NCBI GenBank assembly: GCA_035717985.1
Contig: DASTHW010000005.1
Span: 28,989 to 92,988 of the forward strand
DNA from: Candidatus Saccharimonadales bacterium
GTDB taxonomy: Bacteria > Patescibacteriota > Saccharimonadia > Saccharimonadales > UBA10212
DNA length: 64,000 bases
Direction of reading: 5' to 3'
Under the pieces are notes generated by a model. It saw only the letters and a list, made by a program, of their open reading frames with translations, ran no database searches and was not told where the DNA came from. Positions within the stretch are counted from its first letter, which is position 1, and each line of letters opens with the position of its first letter. A program made the position numbers and the translations under genes. This document shows, piece after piece, positions 3,825 through 40,450 of this stretch.

Positions 3825-5123
3825 ATGCATATTTATTTTTCCGGTATTGGCGGTGCCGGCATTGGCCCGTTGGCACTGATTGCTAAACAGGCCGGCTACG
3901 ATGTCAGCGGCTCGGATGCGCATGATAGCAGTTATATAGATTACCTGAAGAAAAAGGGCATCAGCGATATTCATATCGGTCAAACTGAAGCTGGTATCGC
4001 CCAAGTTCAGGCTAATATGCCAATTGATTGGTTTGTTTATAGCTCGGCCCTGCCTAAAACCAATCCTAATCACCCGGAACTGCTTTTCTGCCGCAAGCGG
4101 GGTATTAAAGCCACCAAGCGCGACGAATTTTTAAACCAAATCTTAGCTGATAAGGACCTAAAGCTGATAGCGGTTGCCGGAACTCATGGCAAAACCACCA
4201 CCACGGCCATGGTTGTATGGCTGTTTAAGCAAATGGGCCGGCCGGTTAGTTATTCAGTAGGTGCTAAAACTTCTTTTTCTGACATGGGGGCCTATGAGGC
4301 GGACAGTGAGTATTTTGTTTACGAAGCCGATGAATATGACCGTAATTTTCTTAGCTTTAAGCCACGATTGAGTCTGATTACCGGTATCGATTGGGATCAC
4401 CCCGATATTTACCCCAGCCGCGACGATTATTACCAGGCCTTTCGCGATTTCATTAATCAGAGTCAGCATACTTTTATCTGGCGGGCTGACGCTCAGAAGT
4501 TGGGCCTGTCCGAAGGTCAAAATGTCACTTTGATTGATGACAATGACCCGGCTATTGCCACAATCCGCTTAGCCGGCGACGTAAACCGGCGCGACGGCTG
4601 GCTGGCCAGTCAAATAGGTTCAGAAGTTGGCCAGCCGGCAGGGGATTTAGCGAAATTTGTTAGCACCTTTCCAGGCCTGTCTCGGCGGTTTGAGCAAATC
4701 GCGCCGAATGTTTACAGCGATTATGCCCACACGCCGCCTAAGATCCGCGGCGCCCTGCAGTTAGCCAAAGAGGTCGCCGGCGACAGAGTAGTGATTATCT
4801 ACGAAGGTCTGCATAACACCCGCCAGCACTTTATTAAAGATGAGCTGGCAAATTTATTTGATGAGGTCAAACAGCTTTATATTGTGCCCAGCTATCTAGC
4901 CCGCGAAGATGAAAGCCTAGAGTTACTGATACCGGAAAAATTACTTGACTTGTTAAGTAATCAGTCTAAGCGGCATGCTGAGGCCGCCCAGCTGGATGAT
5001 AATTTGGCTAAAGTGATTCGTCAGCACGCCAATGCCGGCAATTTGGTGCTTTGCCTATCAGCCGGCGGCGCCGGCTCGCTGGATGAATGGCTCCGCCGGC
5101 AGTTTTCTAACTTAAAGGCCTAA
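3825..5123 (+). CDS. murC: Mur ligase family, UDP-N-acetylmuramate--L-alanine ligase-like
   Basis: N-terminal MHIYFSGIGGAGIGPLALIAKQAGYDVSGSD and P-loop GTHGKTTTTAM are typical of MurC/Mpl. Confidence 0.75.
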   Translation: MHIYFSGIGGAGIGPLALIAKQAGYDVSGSDAHDSSYIDYLKKKGISDIHIGQTEAGIAQVQANMPIDWFVYSSALPKTNPNHPELLFCRKRGIKATKRDEFLNQILADKDLKLIAVAGTHGKTTTTAMVVWLFKQMGRPVSYSVGAKTSFSDMGAYEADSEYFVYEADEYDRNFLSFKPRLSLITGIDWDHPDIYPSRDDYYQAFRDFINQSQHTFIWRADAQKLGLSEGQNVTLIDDNDPAIATIRLAGDVNRRDGWLASQIGSEVGQPAGDLAKFVSTFPGLSRRFEQIAPNVYSDYAHTPPKIRGALQLAKEVAGDRVVIIYEGLHNTRQHFIKDELANLFDEVKQLYIVPSYLAREDESLELLIPEKLLDLLSNQSKRHAEAAQLDDNLAKVIRQHANAGNLVLCLSAGGAGSLDEWLRRQFSNLKA

Positions 5124-38165: not shown

Positions 38166-38528
38166 ATGCAAGACGGCATAGAAGCAAGAGATATAAGGTC
38201 AATGGCCGGGATTAACTTCCTGCTGGGCATTTGGCTAATAATCTCGCCGTGGATCTTAAGCTACAATACCGGTGGCGCCAAATGGAATCAGTTTGCATTT
38301 GGAATAGTAATTTTGGTCTTAAGCGGTCTTAGATATATTTTCCCGCGGGCCCTGGGGGCCAGTTGGCTTGTCGCCCTAGCCGGTATTTGGATGATAATTG
38401 CTCCGTTCATCATTGGCTACAATTCTACGGCGGCCTATTGGAACGAAGTGATTGTCGGTATCGTTGTAACCATTTTGGCCCTGTCTAATATGGGTACTTA
38501 CGGCCGGACGCACGGTAGTCCTGCCTAG
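38166..38528 (+). CDS. SPW-repeat membrane protein
   Basis: Two repeats of the LIISPWIL / MIIAPFII type in a 4-TM, 120-aa ORF. AAGGAGG upstream. Confidence 0.6.
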   Translation: MQDGIEARDIRSMAGINFLLGIWLIISPWILSYNTGGAKWNQFAFGIVILVLSGLRYIFPRALGASWLVALAGIWMIIAPFIIGYNSTAAYWNEVIVGIVVTILALSNMGTYGRTHGSPA

Positions 38529-38610
38529 GTCTCGGCTATATCTCAAAACCAACAATAATGCCGTCTGAAACCAGGCGGCATTATTAGTTTGGCTTAAATT
38601 GTTACGTGCG

Positions 38611-38686
38611 TGGTGGGGATGCCTGGATTTGAACCAGGGACCAATCGGTTATGAGCCGACTGCTCTAACCACTGAGCTACATCCCC
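38611..38686 (-). tRNA. tRNA with CAU anticodon, elongator type (tRNA-Ile2/lysidine-like or tRNA-Met), CCA encoded
   Basis: Hand fold: GGGGATG/CATCCCC acceptor, GTCGG-CTCATAA-CCGAT anticodon arm, CCTGG-TTCAAAT-CCAGG T arm. From memory, the anticodon-arm/variable region resembles E. coli tRNA-Ile2 more than tRNA-Met. Confidence 0.85.
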
Positions 38687-38706
38687 TCGGTGAATTTACA
38701 GATGAA

Positions 38707-38715
38707 ATTATACCA
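38707..38715 (-). promoter_or_regulatory. extended -10 element (TGgTATAAT) for the tRNA at 38611..38686
   Basis: Reverse strand reads CTGGTATAAT about 20 nt upstream of the tRNA 5' end. Confidence 0.4.
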
Positions 38716-38743
38716 GCCAGCCGGCATATTTTATACTTAGGGT

Positions 38744-39199
38744 GTGACAGCTTCTAAAATCCAAACCTGGTGGGCAAGCAATAAAAAACAGCTGACTGAT
38801 ATTAAAAATATCGGGCTTTATATTTTTACGGTTATTCTCTTAGCCATTGCCTGGAGTACGGCCAAAACCATCCAGAATAATTATCAACTGCAAAAGCAGA
38901 TTTCAGTTTTGCGTCAGCAAAACCAAGTTCTTTCTCTGGAAAATCAAAACGCCGGTTTGCAGAACCAGTTTTATCAAACTAATCAGTACTTGGATCTATC
39001 GGCTAGGCAAAACTTAGGCCTGGCGGCACCGGGTGAAAAGGTTTTGCTGGTACCGCAAAACGTGGCTCTAAGGTATATCGATCCGGCCATCGTTAAGACC
39101 CAGTCTGCTAGCGCTCAGGCGCCGGATAATAGGTCAAAAATTATAAAAAACGTCGAAGCCTGGCGCGATTTTCTGCTTGGCCGCCGCCCCGTAGAGTAG
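38744..39199 (+). CDS. FtsB/DivIC-like septum formation initiator
   Basis: One TM segment followed by a Q/L-rich coiled coil (QLQKQISVLRQQNQVLSLENQNAGLQNQ). GTG start. Confidence 0.5.
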   Translation: MTASKIQTWWASNKKQLTDIKNIGLYIFTVILLAIAWSTAKTIQNNYQLQKQISVLRQQNQVLSLENQNAGLQNQFYQTNQYLDLSARQNLGLAAPGEKVLLVPQNVALRYIDPAIVKTQSASAQAPDNRSKIIKNVEAWRDFLLGRRPVE

Positions 39200-39226
39200 A
39201 AAACCTAGTGGCGGTCAACCTATAGT

Positions 39227-39264
39227 CCAAGAAAAAGACCCCAAACTTGGGGTCTTTTTCTTGG
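39227..39264. terminator. bidirectional terminator hairpin
   Basis: CCAAGAAAAAGACCCC-aaactt-GGGGTCTTTTTCTTGG: perfect 16-bp stem. It abuts the 3' CCA of tRNA-fMet on the minus strand and follows the FtsB-like gene on the plus strand. Confidence 0.6.
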
Positions 39265-39336
39265 TAGCGGGGGCAGGATTTGCACCTGCGACCTCGTGGT
39301 TATGAGCCACGCGAGCTACTACTGCTCCACCCCGCG
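39262..39336 (-). tRNA. initiator tRNA-fMet (CAU), CCA encoded
   Basis: CGCGGGGTGGAGCAG...GGCTCATAACC...AAATCC...CCCCGC.ACCA closely parallels the E. coli initiator as I recall it. Unpaired C1 opposite U72, and A11. Confidence 0.85.
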
Positions 39337-39416
39337 TCGGTAATGAGACAAAACCTACGGTTTTTTCTCATCGGCGCTTTTCGGAATGAATCCGAATCCG
39401 CGCTTGCGCACGGACC
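39337..39416 (-). other. structured 5' leader of tRNA-fMet (copy A of a paralogous leader pair)
   Basis: Reverse strand: GGTCCGTGCGCAAGCGCGGATTCGGATTCATTCCGAAAAGCGCCGATGAGAAAAAACCGTAGGTTTTGTCTCATTACCGA. Three hairpins; alignable to 39735..39813. Confidence 0.6.
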
Positions 39417-39460
39417 ACGCCTGCTCTTTTTCCCTAGGATAACCAAGGGCTAGTTAAATT

Positions 39461-39489
39461 ATTTTAATCTGTTAATGGTGGTCTGTCAA
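39461..39489 (-). promoter_or_regulatory. sigma-70-type promoter for the tRNA-fMet leader
   Basis: Reverse strand TTGACA-17 nt-TAAAAT, roughly 120 nt upstream of the tRNA 5' end. Confidence 0.5.
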
Positions 39490-39588
39490 TCTGTAGCGGC
39501 GCCGATAAAAAGCACTAGCTTTTTAGGTAAAAGTCTGTTATAATGGCATTTAAGTTAGCAAAAACAAAAAACAAATAGGAGAAAGTAA

Positions 39589-39666
39589 ATGCCGGAGCTA
39601 GAATTCGAGTTGGCACCAACGACAAACGAGGCCATTTTGGCCATTGACGAAGTGCTGATAGCCTAA
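39589..39666 (+). CDS. possible 25-codon micro-ORF
   Basis: MPELEFELAPTTNEAILAIDEVLIA. AGGAGA lies 7 nt upstream and the extended -10 TGtTATAAT sits at 39536-39544. Below the track cutoff. Confidence 0.25.
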   Translation: MPELEFELAPTTNEAILAIDEVLIA

Positions 39667-39687
39667 GGCCAATAACAGATGTAATTA

Positions 39688-39696
39688 TGCTATAAT
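39688..39696 (+). promoter_or_regulatory. extended -10 element (TGcTATAAT) for the tRNA-Met leader
   Basis: TGCTATAAT about 118 nt upstream of the tRNA-Met 5' end. Confidence 0.45.
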
Positions 39697-39734
39697 TCAT
39701 CTGTTTCCATGTCTTTGCGGGAAAGGTAGTAGCC

Positions 39735-39813
39735 GCGGTTCGTGCGCAAGCGCAAATTCGAATTTAATCGAAAGCGGCGTTGAAGGAAAACCGCAGGTTG
39801 TCCTTCAACTTAA
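39735..39813 (+). other. structured 5' leader of tRNA-Met (copy B of the paralogous leader pair)
   Basis: GCGGTTCGTGCGCAAGCGCAAATTCGAATTTAATCGAAAGCGGCGTTGAAGGAAAACCGCAGGTTGTCCTTCAACTTAAG. Same three-hairpin layout as copy A. Confidence 0.6.
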
Positions 39814-39890
39814 GGCAGGGTAGCTCAGTTGGTTAGAGCACAGGACTCATAAGCCTGGGGTCGCGAGTTCAAATCTCGCCCCTGCTACCA
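39814..39890 (+). tRNA. elongator tRNA-Met (CAU), CCA encoded
   Basis: GGCAGGG/CCCTGCT acceptor, GCTC-AGTTGGTTA-GAGC D arm, CAGGA-CTCATAA-GCCTG anticodon arm (A31/G39 unpaired), GCGAG-TTCAAAT-CTCGC T arm. Resembles E. coli elongator tRNA-Met. Confidence 0.85.
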
Positions 39891-39946
39891 TAGTACTTAT
39901 GCCTAAACTCCTATAATTTTATAGGAGTTTATTTTAAGCTTAAGCT

Positions 39947-40450
39947 ATGAATAAAAGCCAAAAAGGCTTTAGTGCAATCGAAGGTTTATTAATTTTAGTT
40001 ATTTTTGGGGTTATTGCTATTGTCGGAATATATGTATATTCAAACACCAGCACAAAATCCCTTAGCTCTATTTCGATTAAATCGGGAGCTGACATAGAGA
40101 TAATTTCAGGTGCAGGCGGGATGCCTCCGAATACAAGCTCCGGAGAGTTATTGGTGGGTGAGAAATTTACTGTTGTTTTTACTGCACCATTTTCAAGTTT
40201 AGAAAATTGGCAAGCCTCAAAGGAGATAAAAGAAGTCAGCACTACATCAGGCAGGGCTAGCATTGATTTACCGGCAGGTAAATACGGAGCTTATTACATT
40301 TACAAAGGTCATAAAACGCTTTATTCGGGCTTAACTCTCGAAAACCCCAGGAACGATATCCAAAGGGACAAACAAGGGCCTTGGTATATAAAAATTAACA
40401 ACTTACAAAGAACCAAACTCAACTTTTCTGTAAATGCGCAACCAGTCTAA
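39947..40450 (+). CDS. type IV pilin-like protein (prepilin-type N-terminus), low-GC gene
   Basis: MNKSQKG/FSAIEGLLILVIFGVIAIVGIYVY matches the class III signal G|F(S/T)xxE plus a hydrophobic helix. Confidence 0.65.
   Translation: MNKSQKGFSAIEGLLILVIFGVIAIVGIYVYSNTSTKSLSSISIKSGADIEIISGAGGMPPNTSSGELLVGEKFTVVFTAPFSSLENWQASKEIKEVSTTSGRASIDLPAGKYGAYYIYKGHKTLYSGLTLENPRNDIQRDKQGPWYIKINNLQRTKLNFSVNAQPV

Follow-up and report, generated by a model that had tools for sequence, protein, structure and literature searches.

A dispersed, structured RNA element associated with tRNA, rRNA and housekeeping genes in a subset of Saccharibacteria

Introduction

Why should two divergently oriented tRNA genes carry long leaders with the same fold? 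The question is raised by a 64,000-nucleotide stretch of DNA (the window) from a Candidatus Saccharimonadales bacterium, in which tRNA-fMet and a second tRNA with anticodon CAT are each preceded by a structured segment of more than 100 nt. A preliminary description had taken these segments to be paralogous leaders without counterpart among known RNA families, and possibly a processing or regulatory element of methionine-family tRNAs. Saccharibacteria are ultrasmall epibionts with reduced genomes, some of which are now culturable and genetically tractable; to our knowledge very little is known of their RNA processing. We report here that both window leaders are members of a larger dispersed RNA element of a subset of Saccharibacteria, which is apparently undescribed. 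The literature searched yielded nothing relevant on RNA motifs or tRNA leaders of Saccharibacteria or on the sequence motifs of the element, with the exception of a remark on short rRNA insertions (PMC11270868).

Results

Structure of the two window leaders

When the 100 nt preceding the two genes are compared, each in the direction of its gene, they align readily; the leaders are paralogous. Copy A (39337-39454, reverse strand) precedes tRNA-fMet, and copy B (39701-39813, forward strand) precedes a gene that we take to encode elongator tRNA-Met and not Ile2, judging from the E. coli metT and ileX sequences (Table 1). No such leader was present in the upstream alignment of the third CAT tRNA of the window (38611-38686). 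A 19-mer pattern common to both leaders has only 2 sites in the 64 kb, where 0.28 are expected. The promoters proposed earlier were also recovered: each of the two tRNAs has a promoter-like site, at a distance of 111-118 nt, and these sites predict leaders of ~118 nt (copy A) and ~111 nt (copy B).

All three hairpins previously attributed to both leaders are present. Hairpin 1 is CGTGC-GCAA-GCGCG in copy A and CGTGC-GCAA-GCGCA in copy B, and hairpin 2 is TTCGGA-TTCAT-TCCGAA and TTCGA-ATTTAA-TCGAA, respectively. The terminal hairpin has the outer stem ATGAGA/TCTCAT in copy A versus GTTGAAGG/CCTTCAAC in copy B, an identical inner part (AACC-GYA-GGTT), and an end located 6 nt (A) or 4 nt (B) before tRNA +1. 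The leaders thus differ from one another by compensatory changes, as had been claimed. Their minimum free energies are -35.3 (A) and -34.3 (B) kcal/mol, with z-scores of -4.5 and -3.8 relative to dinucleotide shuffles. A scan detected no terminator-like site in either leader, and the terminal hairpin is not followed by a T-run.

Three features had been overlooked. The first is a closing helix, P1, which reads GGCGU/GCGCC in copy A and GCCGC/GCGGC in copy B (one of the pairs is swapped from G-C to C-G); it encloses hairpins 1 and 2, denoted P2 and P3, and generates a three-way junction. A conserved block, GGGAAAAAGAGCAG in copy A and GGGAAAGGTAGTAG in copy B, lies at its 5' side, and the terminal hairpin (P4) holds a conserved A.G mismatch.

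Table 1. Coordinates of features at the divergent tRNA locus
Feature	Position	Strand	Basis
tRNA-fMet initiator gene, anticodon CAT, C1 opposite U72	39262..39336	-	ARAGORN; Rfam tRNA 60 bits; sequence
Copy A linker, UUACCGA-type, single-stranded, P4 to tRNA +1; presumed RNase P site	39337..39342	-	fold, alignment
Copy A P4 hairpin AUGAGAAAAAACC-GUA-GGUUUUGUCUCAU, GNA triloop	39343..39371	-	fold, covariance-model alignment, family covariation
Copy A P4 A.G mismatch	39365/39349	-	fold, covariance-model alignment
Copy A three-way junction	39373..39421	-	fold, alignment, covariation
Copy A P1	39421-39417 with 39377-39373	-	fold, alignment, covariation
Copy A P2, GCAA loop	39414-39397	-	fold, alignment, covariation
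Copy A P3	39396-39380	-	fold, alignment, covariation
Copy A conserved 5' block GGGAAAAAGAGCAG, subtype A	39421..39434	-	sequence comparison
Copy A leader 5' end, from predicted transcription start	39435..39454	-	sequence
Promoter of fMet transcript, TTGACA-17-TAAAAT	39461..39489	-	scan, 11/12 matches
Extended -10 of tRNA-Met transcript, TGcTATAAT	39688..39696	+	sequence
Copy B leader 5' end	39701..39718	+	sequence, P0 tests
Copy B conserved 5' block GGGAAAGGTAGTAG, subtype B	39719..39732	+	sequence comparison, alignment
Copy B three-way junction	39732..39778	+	fold, alignment, covariation
Copy B P1	39732-39736 with 39774-39778	+	fold, alignment, covariation
Copy B P2, GCAA loop	39739-39756	+	fold, alignment, covariation
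Copy B P3	39757-39772	+	fold, alignment, covariation
Copy B P4 hairpin GUUGAAGGAAAACC-GCA-GGUUGUCCUUCAAC	39779..39809	+	fold, alignment, covariation
Copy B P4 A.G mismatch	39788/39800	+	fold, alignment, covariation
Copy B linker UUAA before tRNA +1	39810..39813	+	sequence, alignment
Elongator-type tRNA-Met gene, anticodon CAT	39814..39890	+	ARAGORN; Rfam tRNA 68 bits

A dispersed family with a common architecture

A pattern scan of 185,579 species genomes yielded ~70 structured matches in ~47 assemblies, nearly all labelled Saccharibacteria or Saccharimonadales. A covariance model then identified 84 homologous copies in the 627 kb of loci from the pattern scan, and 0 copies in 394 kb of unrelated metagenome DNA (80 loci listed) used as a negative control. 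The loci of this control are metagenome matches to a window-specific P2 pattern, considered at first as possible close relatives; as the covariance model finds nothing in them, they are chance matches only. Genomes contain 1-6 strict copies, and many Saccharibacteria are without the element. At gathering score, a Rfam 15 search of the window returned tRNA matches only, in agreement with the earlier view that the leaders belong to no known family. With E up to 10 over 38500-40000, the leaders were overlapped only by weak, chance-level matches centred on a tRNA or terminator (e.g., Phe_leader, E = 7.2, reaching 39367).

The module is ~100-130 nt long and consists, from 5' to 3', of a purine-rich block (consensus GGGAAA-RRK-AG-Y-AG), a variable central domain, P4 with its A.G mismatch and AACC-GNA-GGUU tip, a short A/U-rich linker and a helix of the downstream RNA. 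The central domain is either the P1[P2,P3] three-way junction or a single hairpin, and the single-hairpin variants are 67-69 nt long. Two sequence subtypes are distinguishable, with copy A belonging to subtype A and copy B to subtype B. A recent segmental duplication was rejected as the source of the window pair because the subtypes differ and each copy is closer to copies in other genomes.

The purine-rich block may take part in a 5' hairpin, P0 (5'-CUGUUNNN with NNNAGYAG), of which it would be the 3' strand. In copy A, CCCU (39449-39446) can pair with AGGG (39435-39432), and in copy B CUGUUUCC can pair with GGUAGUAG at 7/8 positions. Permuting flanks between copies gave no signal (6.49 vs 6.47), and shuffled flanks gave modest support (9.21 vs 8.85 +/- 0.07). 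CCC occurs upstream of GGG in 26/84 copies (13.9 expected), and anchoring on the promoter CTG gave p ~0.04-0.06; the tRNA at 38686, which is without the element, likewise has CTGT after its -10. We tentatively retain P0 as part of the element. Two other pairings of the 5' block were tried and discarded: as a Shine-Dalgarno mimic of the 16S 3' end (...CCUCCUUUCUA) it forms 6 bp in subtype B and 3-4 bp in subtype A, and as a switch with the P4 3' strand, judged by eye, 3-4 bp only in either subtype.

Covariation and selection on the transcribed strand

In the covariance-model alignment of the 84 copies, which had been fitted to the model structure, 95.2% of cells are paired and both sides have changed in 26 of 29 pairs. 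The covariation score is 0.51, compared with 0.15 for shuffles and 0.05-0.08 for slid partners. The proposal that structure rather than sequence is selected, originally made from the window pair, is therefore supported on 84 copies. Copies within one genome all differ in P1-P3, and orthologous copies differ by compensatory changes, as seen between the window tRNA-Met leader and those at L001 and L068, and between L034 and L063 upstream of obg. The unpaired motifs are conserved and the stems are variable. The tRNA-linked copies contain 21 G.U pairs and 4 A.C mismatches, an excess suggesting that it is the transcribed strand that is selected, whereas antisense copies show no such bias (3 vs 3).

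Several stems combined with a handful of invariant unpaired nucleotides could also describe a new self-cleaving ribozyme, a natural counterpart of the synthetic ribozyme insulators that free a downstream RNA from promoter-derived sequence. Consistent with such an activity, the element always lies directly 5' of a functional RNA or ribosome-binding site, and a small hairpin, P5, often follows it. However, no Rfam ribozyme family matches, even at E up to 10, which speaks against the core and fold of the hammerhead, twister, twister-sister, pistol, hatchet, HDV-like and hairpin classes. The single-hairpin variants show that the element can do without its central junction, its spacing from tRNA +1 is variable (3-9 nt), and tRNA 5' ends are already accounted for by RNase P. 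We give this explanation a slim chance. A hammerhead core (CUGAUGA...GAAA) was looked for by eye: subtype A has CGAUGAG with no GAAA after the stem, and subtype B lacks the motif.

Genomic contexts of the element

The contexts of the copies are diverse. Twenty-two copies end 3-9 nt before tRNAs of eight kinds (Pro, Arg, Tyr, His, Asp, Asn, Met and fMet), always at this fixed position and in the orientation of the tRNA. A strong -10 element lies 19-47 nt upstream of the conserved block in 18 of these 22, and therefore the leader consists of the element; the layout TATAAT-N5-CTGT occurs in 15/22 (3.7 expected). Two copies end at the start of 5S rRNA and one lies between two tRNAs (L083). Others are followed within 9-27 nt by the start codons of S10 (rpsJ), L10 (rplJ), S13 (rpsM), GroEL (groEL), FtsA (ftsA), PilM (pilM), PilC (pilC), HisRS (hisS) or an M48 peptidase. 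Eight copies are located inside 23S genes, and ~15 are antisense between co-directional genes, without a forward promoter.

These contexts overturn the idea of an element dedicated to methionine tRNAs. Both window copies do precede CAT-anticodon tRNAs, and at least four genomes (those of the window, L001/L070, L068 and L032) have the element before elongator tRNA-Met, but most copies precede other tRNAs, rRNAs or mRNAs, and the third window CAT tRNA and fMet genes of relatives are without it. The latter often have a short, ~15-nt leader (L004, L005) or a degenerate one (L001). The fMet locus as a whole varies, with subtype A in the window, subtype B in L048 and L019, none in L004 and L005, and a remnant in L001. 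Control of transcription by the leader, as had also been envisaged, is argued against because no terminator-like or other expression platform follows hairpin 3. A methionine-specific regulatory or processing role is almost certainly wrong. More generally, the genes concerned do not form the coherent set expected of a gene-class-specific cis-regulator (riboswitch or T-box-like), nor was a terminator/antiterminator or ribosome-binding-site sequestration found that could act as its expression platform.

The element might also be a cis-acting modifier of transcription, providing put/EAR-like processive antitermination or protection from Rho to untranslated or long housekeeping transcripts that need it. 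In tRNA genes and operons it is found near the promoter, further copies are present inside the rRNA operon, which is untranslated, and the conserved motifs could conceivably contact RNA polymerase. Yet in neither of the two operons inspected does a copy precede 16S, antitermination would be of little use to a lone tRNA gene of 75 nt, antisense copies occur, and Rfam reveals no likeness to the put or EAR families. We consider such a modifier highly unlikely.

Evidence for and against a mobile DNA repeat

The element may instead be a selfish, REP- or MITE-like mobile repeat whose hairpins act at the DNA level as substrates of a transposase (REP-associated tyrosine or IS200/IS605-type). Copies would then survive where they are harmless, in removed leaders, rRNA helix tips and intergenic spacers, and RNA effects would be incidental. 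Dispersed intergenic copies in both orientations, up to 5-6 per genome, are what such a repeat would produce. A head-to-head pair separated by 16 nt is present at L046, and reversed copies occur within 23S (L013, degenerate) and in a 23S-5S spacer (L071). Insertion sites within 23S differ between genomes, and the fMet locus is filled by differing subtypes in some genomes and empty in others. The lack of G.U bias in antisense copies agrees with this interpretation, as does a GTAG or GCAG directly before the GC-rich stem; REP sequences have GTAG next to a GC-rich stem.

Against a mobile repeat, near-identical copies within a genome are absent, each having its own P1-P3; orthologues keep the structure through compensatory changes; G.U exceeds A.C in transcribed copies; and all 22 tRNA-linked copies share one orientation and position. 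No transposase gene is located beside any copy in crude ORF maps of the 8-kb loci, and we know of no transposase for the element. Terminal inverted repeats are absent except for the inverted P4 partner of the 23S copies, and an unsystematic look at the 23S sites revealed no target-site duplication. We consider a selfish repeat of this kind unlikely.

Structured dispersed repeats are well known from other bacteria. Correia (Neisseria), ERIC/IRU (Yersinia), REP/BIME (enterobacterial) and BOX/RUP (pneumococcal) elements are multi-copy intergenic sequences of ~100 nt found in either orientation, which form hairpins in mRNA that can be targets of RNase III or RNase E. The Saccharibacteria element resembles them in being multi-copy, in length, intergenic location, occurrence in both orientations and hairpins. 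It differs in that copies within a genome are not near-identical, compensatory evolution is strong at individual loci, copies lie precisely 5' of mature stable RNAs and also inside rRNA, and terminal inverted repeats are missing outside the 23S copies.

Three further ideas were examined and set aside. Orientation set by replication direction was rejected because GC skew keeps one sign across nearly the whole window, with no switch near the element, while the window copies face opposite ways. Integron attC-like ends (GTTRRRY / RYYYAAC) fit poorly, especially in subtype A. The reverse complement of antisense copies is no Rho-independent terminator, as judged by eye from the lack of a U-tract after the stem.

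Copies within 23S rRNA genes

The eight 23S copies are in relatives of the window genome (L071, L083, L041, L031, L084, L038, L027, L055). One is inserted at LSU model position ~1216 and two at ~515-535 of the L013 23S gene, used as reference; in terms of E. coli 23S, we take these sites to be the helix-45 and helix-25 regions. The 23S copies contain an extra upstream segment that pairs with the P4 3' strand. Since the duplexes are bulged, an ungapped search for this partner failed to tell the classes of copies apart, and duplex energies were compared instead. The mean energy of the upstream flank with the P4 3' half is -18.8 kcal/mol for 23S copies, ~-12 for the tRNA, antisense and unclassified classes, and -14.4 kcal/mol for the mRNA class. 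Duplexes of ~20-22 bp (-20 to -25.5 kcal/mol) are formed by 5/8 of the 23S copies, and in L031 the upstream partner changes along with P4. The extended end duplex is absent from both window copies.

These insertions resemble the intervening sequences (IVS) of Salmonella, Leptospira, Campylobacter and Coxiella in being ~110-160 nt long, in their location at 23S helix tips, and in ends that pair into a long duplex of the RNase III substrate type. Unlike IVS, however, the core of the element, which forms the loop of the IVS stem, is kept in sequence and structure across genomes and also makes up tRNA, 5S and mRNA leaders, which is undescribed for IVS. The two window copies are outside rRNA altogether, in tRNA leaders, and do not themselves qualify as 23S IVS. 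Among 66 rRNA insertions reported in Saccharibacteria, 64 are short, without an intron or endonuclease gene, and probably of the IVS type (Tsurumaki et al., 2024, PMC11270868).

Discussion

The explanation that we favor, at a probability of roughly 45%, is that the element is a dispersed spacer module, structured at the RNA level and removed as the transcript matures. The entire transcript from +1 to the tRNA would, in the window, be module, folding by itself during transcription with its 5' end held in structure and leaving only 4-6 nt unpaired before the acceptor stem. A cut by RNase P at the linker would then set the module free, as a separate by-product of ~110 nt. At other loci, it would serve as a discarded spacer before 5S rRNA and between tRNAs, as the core of 23S intervening sequences excised through a ~20-bp duplex of the usual RNase III substrate kind, or by another endonuclease, and as a 5' or intercistronic leader of housekeeping operons. 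The cell might benefit in that the folding of downstream RNA is insulated or in that processing occurs at a set position. We think that the module probably dispersed as a repeat in the first place and that its maintenance today is at the RNA level.

Ordinary leaders removed by RNase P, RNase E/Y or RNase III likewise occupy the interval from promoter to tRNA +1 and have a few unpaired nucleotides before the acceptor stem, but they are short and unconserved between unrelated tRNA genes, whereas the element is ~110 nt, has conserved motifs, and is shared across genes and genomes. Some observations fit poorly with a discarded spacer. Purely cis processing of the forward RNA fails to account for antisense and reversed copies, P4 alone, at 13 bp, is short for RNase III, and the distribution is patchy. 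Close relatives without the element before fMet imply that it is dispensable at any given locus. Mere waste RNA should, moreover, need no conserved unpaired motifs, and their conservation suggests that the module is recognized by some protein or RNase. An 84-aa RRM protein, whose gene is near the Met tRNA cluster of relatives, is one candidate, and L039 and L054 each code for a protein with a C-terminus that we take to be that of RNase Y.

Whatever its role, the element constitutes a well-supported new RNA family with a covariance model available. One module would tie together tRNA leaders, a 5S leader, 23S insertions and the leaders of S10, L10, S13, groEL, cell-division and pilus operons, features so far treated separately; the rRNA insertions of the phylum are recorded in the literature as short and uncharacterised. 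The element can be used as a marker of precursor boundaries in these genomes and offers a concrete target for experiments. Binding of a specific factor would indicate a lineage-specific maturation or quality-control step. A stronger version, which we consider unlikely, is that the module is read by a dedicated factor or is itself catalytic, defining a Saccharibacteria-specific pathway that marks the mature 5' ends of tRNAs, 5S rRNA, 23S fragments and operon mRNAs, or that the released ~110-nt RNA is abundant and trans-acting. Any of these would make the element a new functional RNA class and no passive spacer or repeat.

The last of these possibilities, taken alone, is distinctly unlikely. The module released from many highly expressed precursors (tRNA leaders, rRNA spacers, intervening sequences and operon leaders) would be an abundant small RNA acting in trans by way of the GGGAAA...AG.AG block and the P4 tip; it might, e.g., be the sponge or the cofactor of an RNA-binding protein. 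The low number of strict copies per genome, the many Saccharibacteria without the element and the antisense copies without promoters argue against such a function. As a by-product of stable-RNA maturation able to persist, the module would be comparable to the E. coli 3'ETS-leuZ sponge; RNAs of that type differ in that they derive from a single locus and base-pair with known small RNAs, and the element is multi-copy. In favor of a trans-acting RNA, unpaired motifs are conserved as stems vary, helices P0 and P4 would shield both ends after RNase P cleavage, and it is the most strongly transcribed genes that carry the element. Its core is also conserved within the loop of the IVS stem, where it would be needless if excision were the sole purpose, and some copies (L035, L037, L050, L066) have a terminator-like hairpin behind them but no gene.

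The tRNA-fMet and tRNA-Met leaders share a fold

The window contains three tRNA genes with CAT anticodons. One has a C1/U72 mismatch and is the initiator; judged by resemblance to E. coli sequences, the others are presumably the elongator tRNA-Met and a lysidine-type tRNA-Ile2 (like ileX). About 100 nt upstream of tRNA-fMet (copy A) and tRNA-Met (copy B) align, each on its own strand; the leader of the tRNA-Ile2-like gene is short (∼17 nt) and unrelated to them. Both copies contain the three hairpins, here named P2, P3 and P4, noted in the preliminary description, with one base pair deleted from P3 between copies and an outer P4 stem that is wholly replaced in sequence yet compensated. Minimum free energies are -35.3 (copy A) and -34.3 kcal/mol (copy B), with z = -4.5 and -3.8 relative to dinucleotide shuffles. 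The folds also showed P1, a helix (GGCGU/GCGCC in copy A, GCCGC/GCGGC in copy B) that closes P2 and P3 into a three-way junction, and the alignment revealed a conserved purine-rich 5' block. The promoter-like sites imply leaders of ∼118 and ∼111 nt, within the ∼110-120 nt range proposed earlier, so that the leaders would be almost wholly element. The core pattern common to the two copies had no third site in the 64 kb (0.28 expected), and a covariance model found no further copies in the window.

Features around the tRNA-fMet and tRNA-Met leaders in the window
Feature	Position	Strand	Basis or remark
tRNA-Ile2-like gene, CAT anticodon	38611-38686	-	ARAGORN + Rfam
TATAAT-N5-CTGT promoter layout of this gene (region)	38611-38720	-
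Initiator tRNA-fMet gene, CAT anticodon	39262-39336	-	ARAGORN + Rfam
Copy A	39337-39454	-	leader of tRNA-fMet
Promoter-like site TTGACA-17-TAAAAT	39489-39461	-	putative promoter of copy A
Extended -10 TGtTATAAT	39536-39544	+	ahead of small ORF
Small ORF, 25 aa (MPELEFELAPTTNEAILAIDEVLIA)	39589-39666	+	GGAGA 7 nt upstream
Promoter-like site TGcTATAAT (extended -10)	39688-39696	+	putative promoter of copy B
Copy B	39701-39813	+	leader of tRNA-Met
Elongator tRNA-Met-like gene, CAT anticodon	39814-39890	+	ARAGORN + Rfam
A.G mismatch in tRNA-Met anticodon stem	39845/39853	+	gene positions 32/40

The P2 hairpin GTGCGCAAGCGC is common to both copies and present in none of 88 other loci compared, and the blocks flanking it are of a different subtype in each copy. 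A shared P2 within unlike flanks suggests local gene conversion between the inverted neighbors rather than recent duplication.

Between the divergent tRNA promoters lies a small ORF, and transcription from the -10 element ahead of it would enter the tRNA-Met promoter and leader. The TATAAT-N5-CTGT layout also occurs at the promoter of the element-free tRNA gene; CTGT may thus be a promoter or start-site feature instead of part of the element. The anticodon stem of tRNA-Met has an A.G mismatch as its last pair (31-39, standard numbering), and the same sequence is found in the tRNA-Met of L001 and L068, two of the L-numbered loci fetched from other genomes.

The leaders belong to a covarying RNA family

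A pattern of two blocks common to three sequences was scanned on one genome per species (185,579 species), giving 81 matching stretches. About 70 have the full structure. The ∼47 assemblies that hold them almost all bear the label Saccharibacteria, Saccharimonadales or Patescibacteria; a few have other bin labels, and several genomes contain 4-6 matches. Some ten matches in other phyla are without the structure and reflect chance. Typical copies also occur in assemblies labelled Binatia, Babeliales, Gammaproteobacteria and Bacillota (DATKKU01, DATIIZ01, L046, L077); these bins are probably mislabelled or contaminated, and genes flanking the DATKKU copy match the Saccharimonadales window.

There are two sequence subtypes, A (GGGAAAAAGAGCAG ... 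GAUGAGAAAAAACCGUAGGUUUUGUCUCAU) and B (GGGAAAGGUAGUAG ... GUUGAAGGAAAACCGYAGGUUGUCCUUCAA), and the window has one copy of each. The central domain likewise comes in two forms, one a three-way junction of 77-84 nt and the other a single hairpin of 67-69 nt. RNAalifold, run on 43 copies, recovered P1, P2 and P4; in 13 of the 20 pairs both partners have changed. The covariance model found 84 copies in 627 kb of fetched loci and had no match in 394 kb of unrelated contigs from metagenomes. In the alignment of the 84, which was fitted to the model, 95.2% of cells pair and both sides change in 26 of the 29 pairs, which bears out the proposal that structure rather than sequence is under selection. 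The covariation score is 0.51 versus 0.15 for shuffles and 0.05-0.08 for slid partners, a very large margin that agrees with an independent MAFFT alignment. No Rfam 15 family matches the element, in keeping with its first description as unrecognised.

Copies precede many tRNA, rRNA and protein genes

The FtsB-like protein adjoining the tRNAs in the window has an identical counterpart in a Candidatus Saccharimonadales genome bin and hundreds of homologues in that group; the one in L001, from a relative, is 69% identical. The elongator tRNA-Met leader of L001 is the same element, with a 5' block and P4 nearly identical to those in the window and with P1, P2 and P3 all rewritten compensatorily. 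The L001 fMet leader differs and is possibly degenerate, and in two other relatives only ∼15 nt separate the fMet gene and its promoter. Conserved though it is, the element thus does not belong to fMet as a constant feature. Within the L001 fMet leader (4040-4162), AAAGAGGAGAAGCAG is immediately followed by GAAAGGCCGTAGGAG, apparently what is left of a collapsed element whose 5' block has fused with the tip of P4.

The 3' end of 22 copies is 3-9 nt from a tRNA gene: for Pro (four), Arg (five), Tyr, His, Asp, Asn (two), Met or fMet. For 18 of the 22, a strong -10 element is found 19-47 nt upstream. In two copies the end coincides with the first position of 5S rRNA, one is placed between tRNAs, and ∼15 lie 9-27 nt upstream of start codons, some within operons. 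Proteins following the mRNA-leader copies, assigned with Pfam, include S10, L10, S13, GroEL, FtsA, PilM, PilC, HisRS and an M48 peptidase. These contexts overturn the tie to methionine-family tRNAs that the two window leaders had prompted, and a methionine-specific regulator, last of the five alternatives we considered, is very unlikely. The original observation is confirmed and extended. Its interpretation holds in part: for a structured, selected and unrecognised RNA, but not for methionine specificity. In copies not linked to tRNAs, P4 is followed after 2-4 A/U-rich nt by P5, a small hairpin rich in G and C (GGC-GRA-GCC or variants that covary), in the place occupied by the acceptor stem in tRNA copies.

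Copies within 23S rRNA genes are flanked by a pairing segment

Eight copies lie within 23S rRNA genes at differing positions, and one of them immediately follows a group I intron. The L071 copy is at approximately position 1216 of the LSU model and the L083 and L041 copies at ∼515-535 of the reference 23S gene (L013); in E. coli 23S terms, these would be the classical helix-45 and helix-25 intervening-sequence sites. An extra upstream segment pairs with the P4 loop and 3' strand, in five of the eight as a 20-22-bp duplex (-20 to -25.5 kcal/mol) that is missing from copies in other contexts. In L031, P4 is altered and its upstream partner is altered with it.

One 23S gene, in L038 (1391-2053), holds two group I introns (Rfam, 73.6 and 82.5 bits); a copy makes up the 3' end of the second, and another is present in the spacer between 23S and 5S (4048-4135).

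Antisense copies point to spread as a repeat

Approximately 15 copies, some among the best-scoring, are antisense between two co-directional genes, with the upstream gene's stop codon 2-10 nt from P4 or P5; a tRNA-type forward promoter was not found at these copies. They keep the strand-asymmetric features (purine block, A.G mismatch, GNA triloop). G.U and A.C pairs number 21 and 4 in tRNA-linked copies, the excess expected under selection on the transcribed strand, versus 3 and 3 in antisense copies. The copies that L034 and L063 carry ahead of obg are orthologous and have compensatory differences. A degenerate reversed copy occurs in the L013 23S gene and another reversed copy in the L071 23S-5S spacer. 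The antisense, reversed and head-to-head copies, patchy orthologous presence and varied rRNA sites suggest that the element, a dispersed repeat in appearance, has spread as one. A REP/MITE-like repeat whose hairpins serve mobility is the foremost alternative; an active selfish element is disfavored because P1-P3 are never the same in two copies of one genome and each locus preserves the structure individually.

In L046 (1326-1505), a head-to-head pair 16 nt apart is flanked by a 443-aa gene and a lysine-rich ORF of 48 aa and, if co-transcribed, would form a ∼90-bp duplex. Genes adjoining antisense copies in L009, L073 and L063 have TATAAT or TATATA only 8-10 nt from the ATG, a spacing suggestive of leaderless mRNAs in the genomes concerned.

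A structured spacer is the favored mode of action

In its presumed working, the element resembles an intervening sequence or structured spacer. We favor a structured spacer module acting at the RNA level, with a probability of roughly 45%. The module would fold autonomously from the putative transcription start, leaving a short stretch of unpaired, A/U-rich RNA ahead of the first downstream helix. RNase P would cut it from tRNAs, RNase III acting on the long duplex would cut it out of 23S, and another endonuclease may separate it from downstream RNA in other contexts. The analysis establishes the structure, the genomic contexts and the distribution; the start sites, the cuts and any benefit are inferred. 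That its unpaired motifs are conserved argues for recognition of the module by a protein or RNase, or else for a separate role of the RNA once released; a trans-acting leader-derived RNA ranks second among the alternatives. Third is an antitermination element acting in cis, and fourth a new self-cleaving ribozyme.

In Saccharibacteria, 64 of 66 rRNA insertions are short and without introns or endonuclease genes, and short non-intron insertions in CPR 23S genes cluster at known intervening-sequence sites; the Saccharibacteria insertions were neither characterised nor related to leaders (Tsurumaki et al., 2024; PMC11270868). A 2017 survey of 224 motifs lists only lysM-TM7 for this phylum, and literature searches for the element's motif strings and related subjects returned nothing. 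One conserved core common to tRNA leaders, a 5S leader, 23S insertions and operon leaders appears undescribed in the searched literature.

An 84-aa RRM_1 RNA-binding protein, 80-82% identical among relatives, is encoded near the Met tRNA cluster in L001 (4461-4715), L008, L016, L019, L048 and L068, with no such gene within the 64-kb window; it is a possible partner of the purine-rich block. In L049 (5592-5865) and L052 (6920-7238, minus strand), the element is followed by a ∼270-nt untranslated stretch ahead of rsmH/mraW (Pfam-shown in L049 only). This stretch begins with a conserved GCTATTTGGCAGTCA, has no Rfam match, and could be another cis-acting RNA heading the cell-division cluster.
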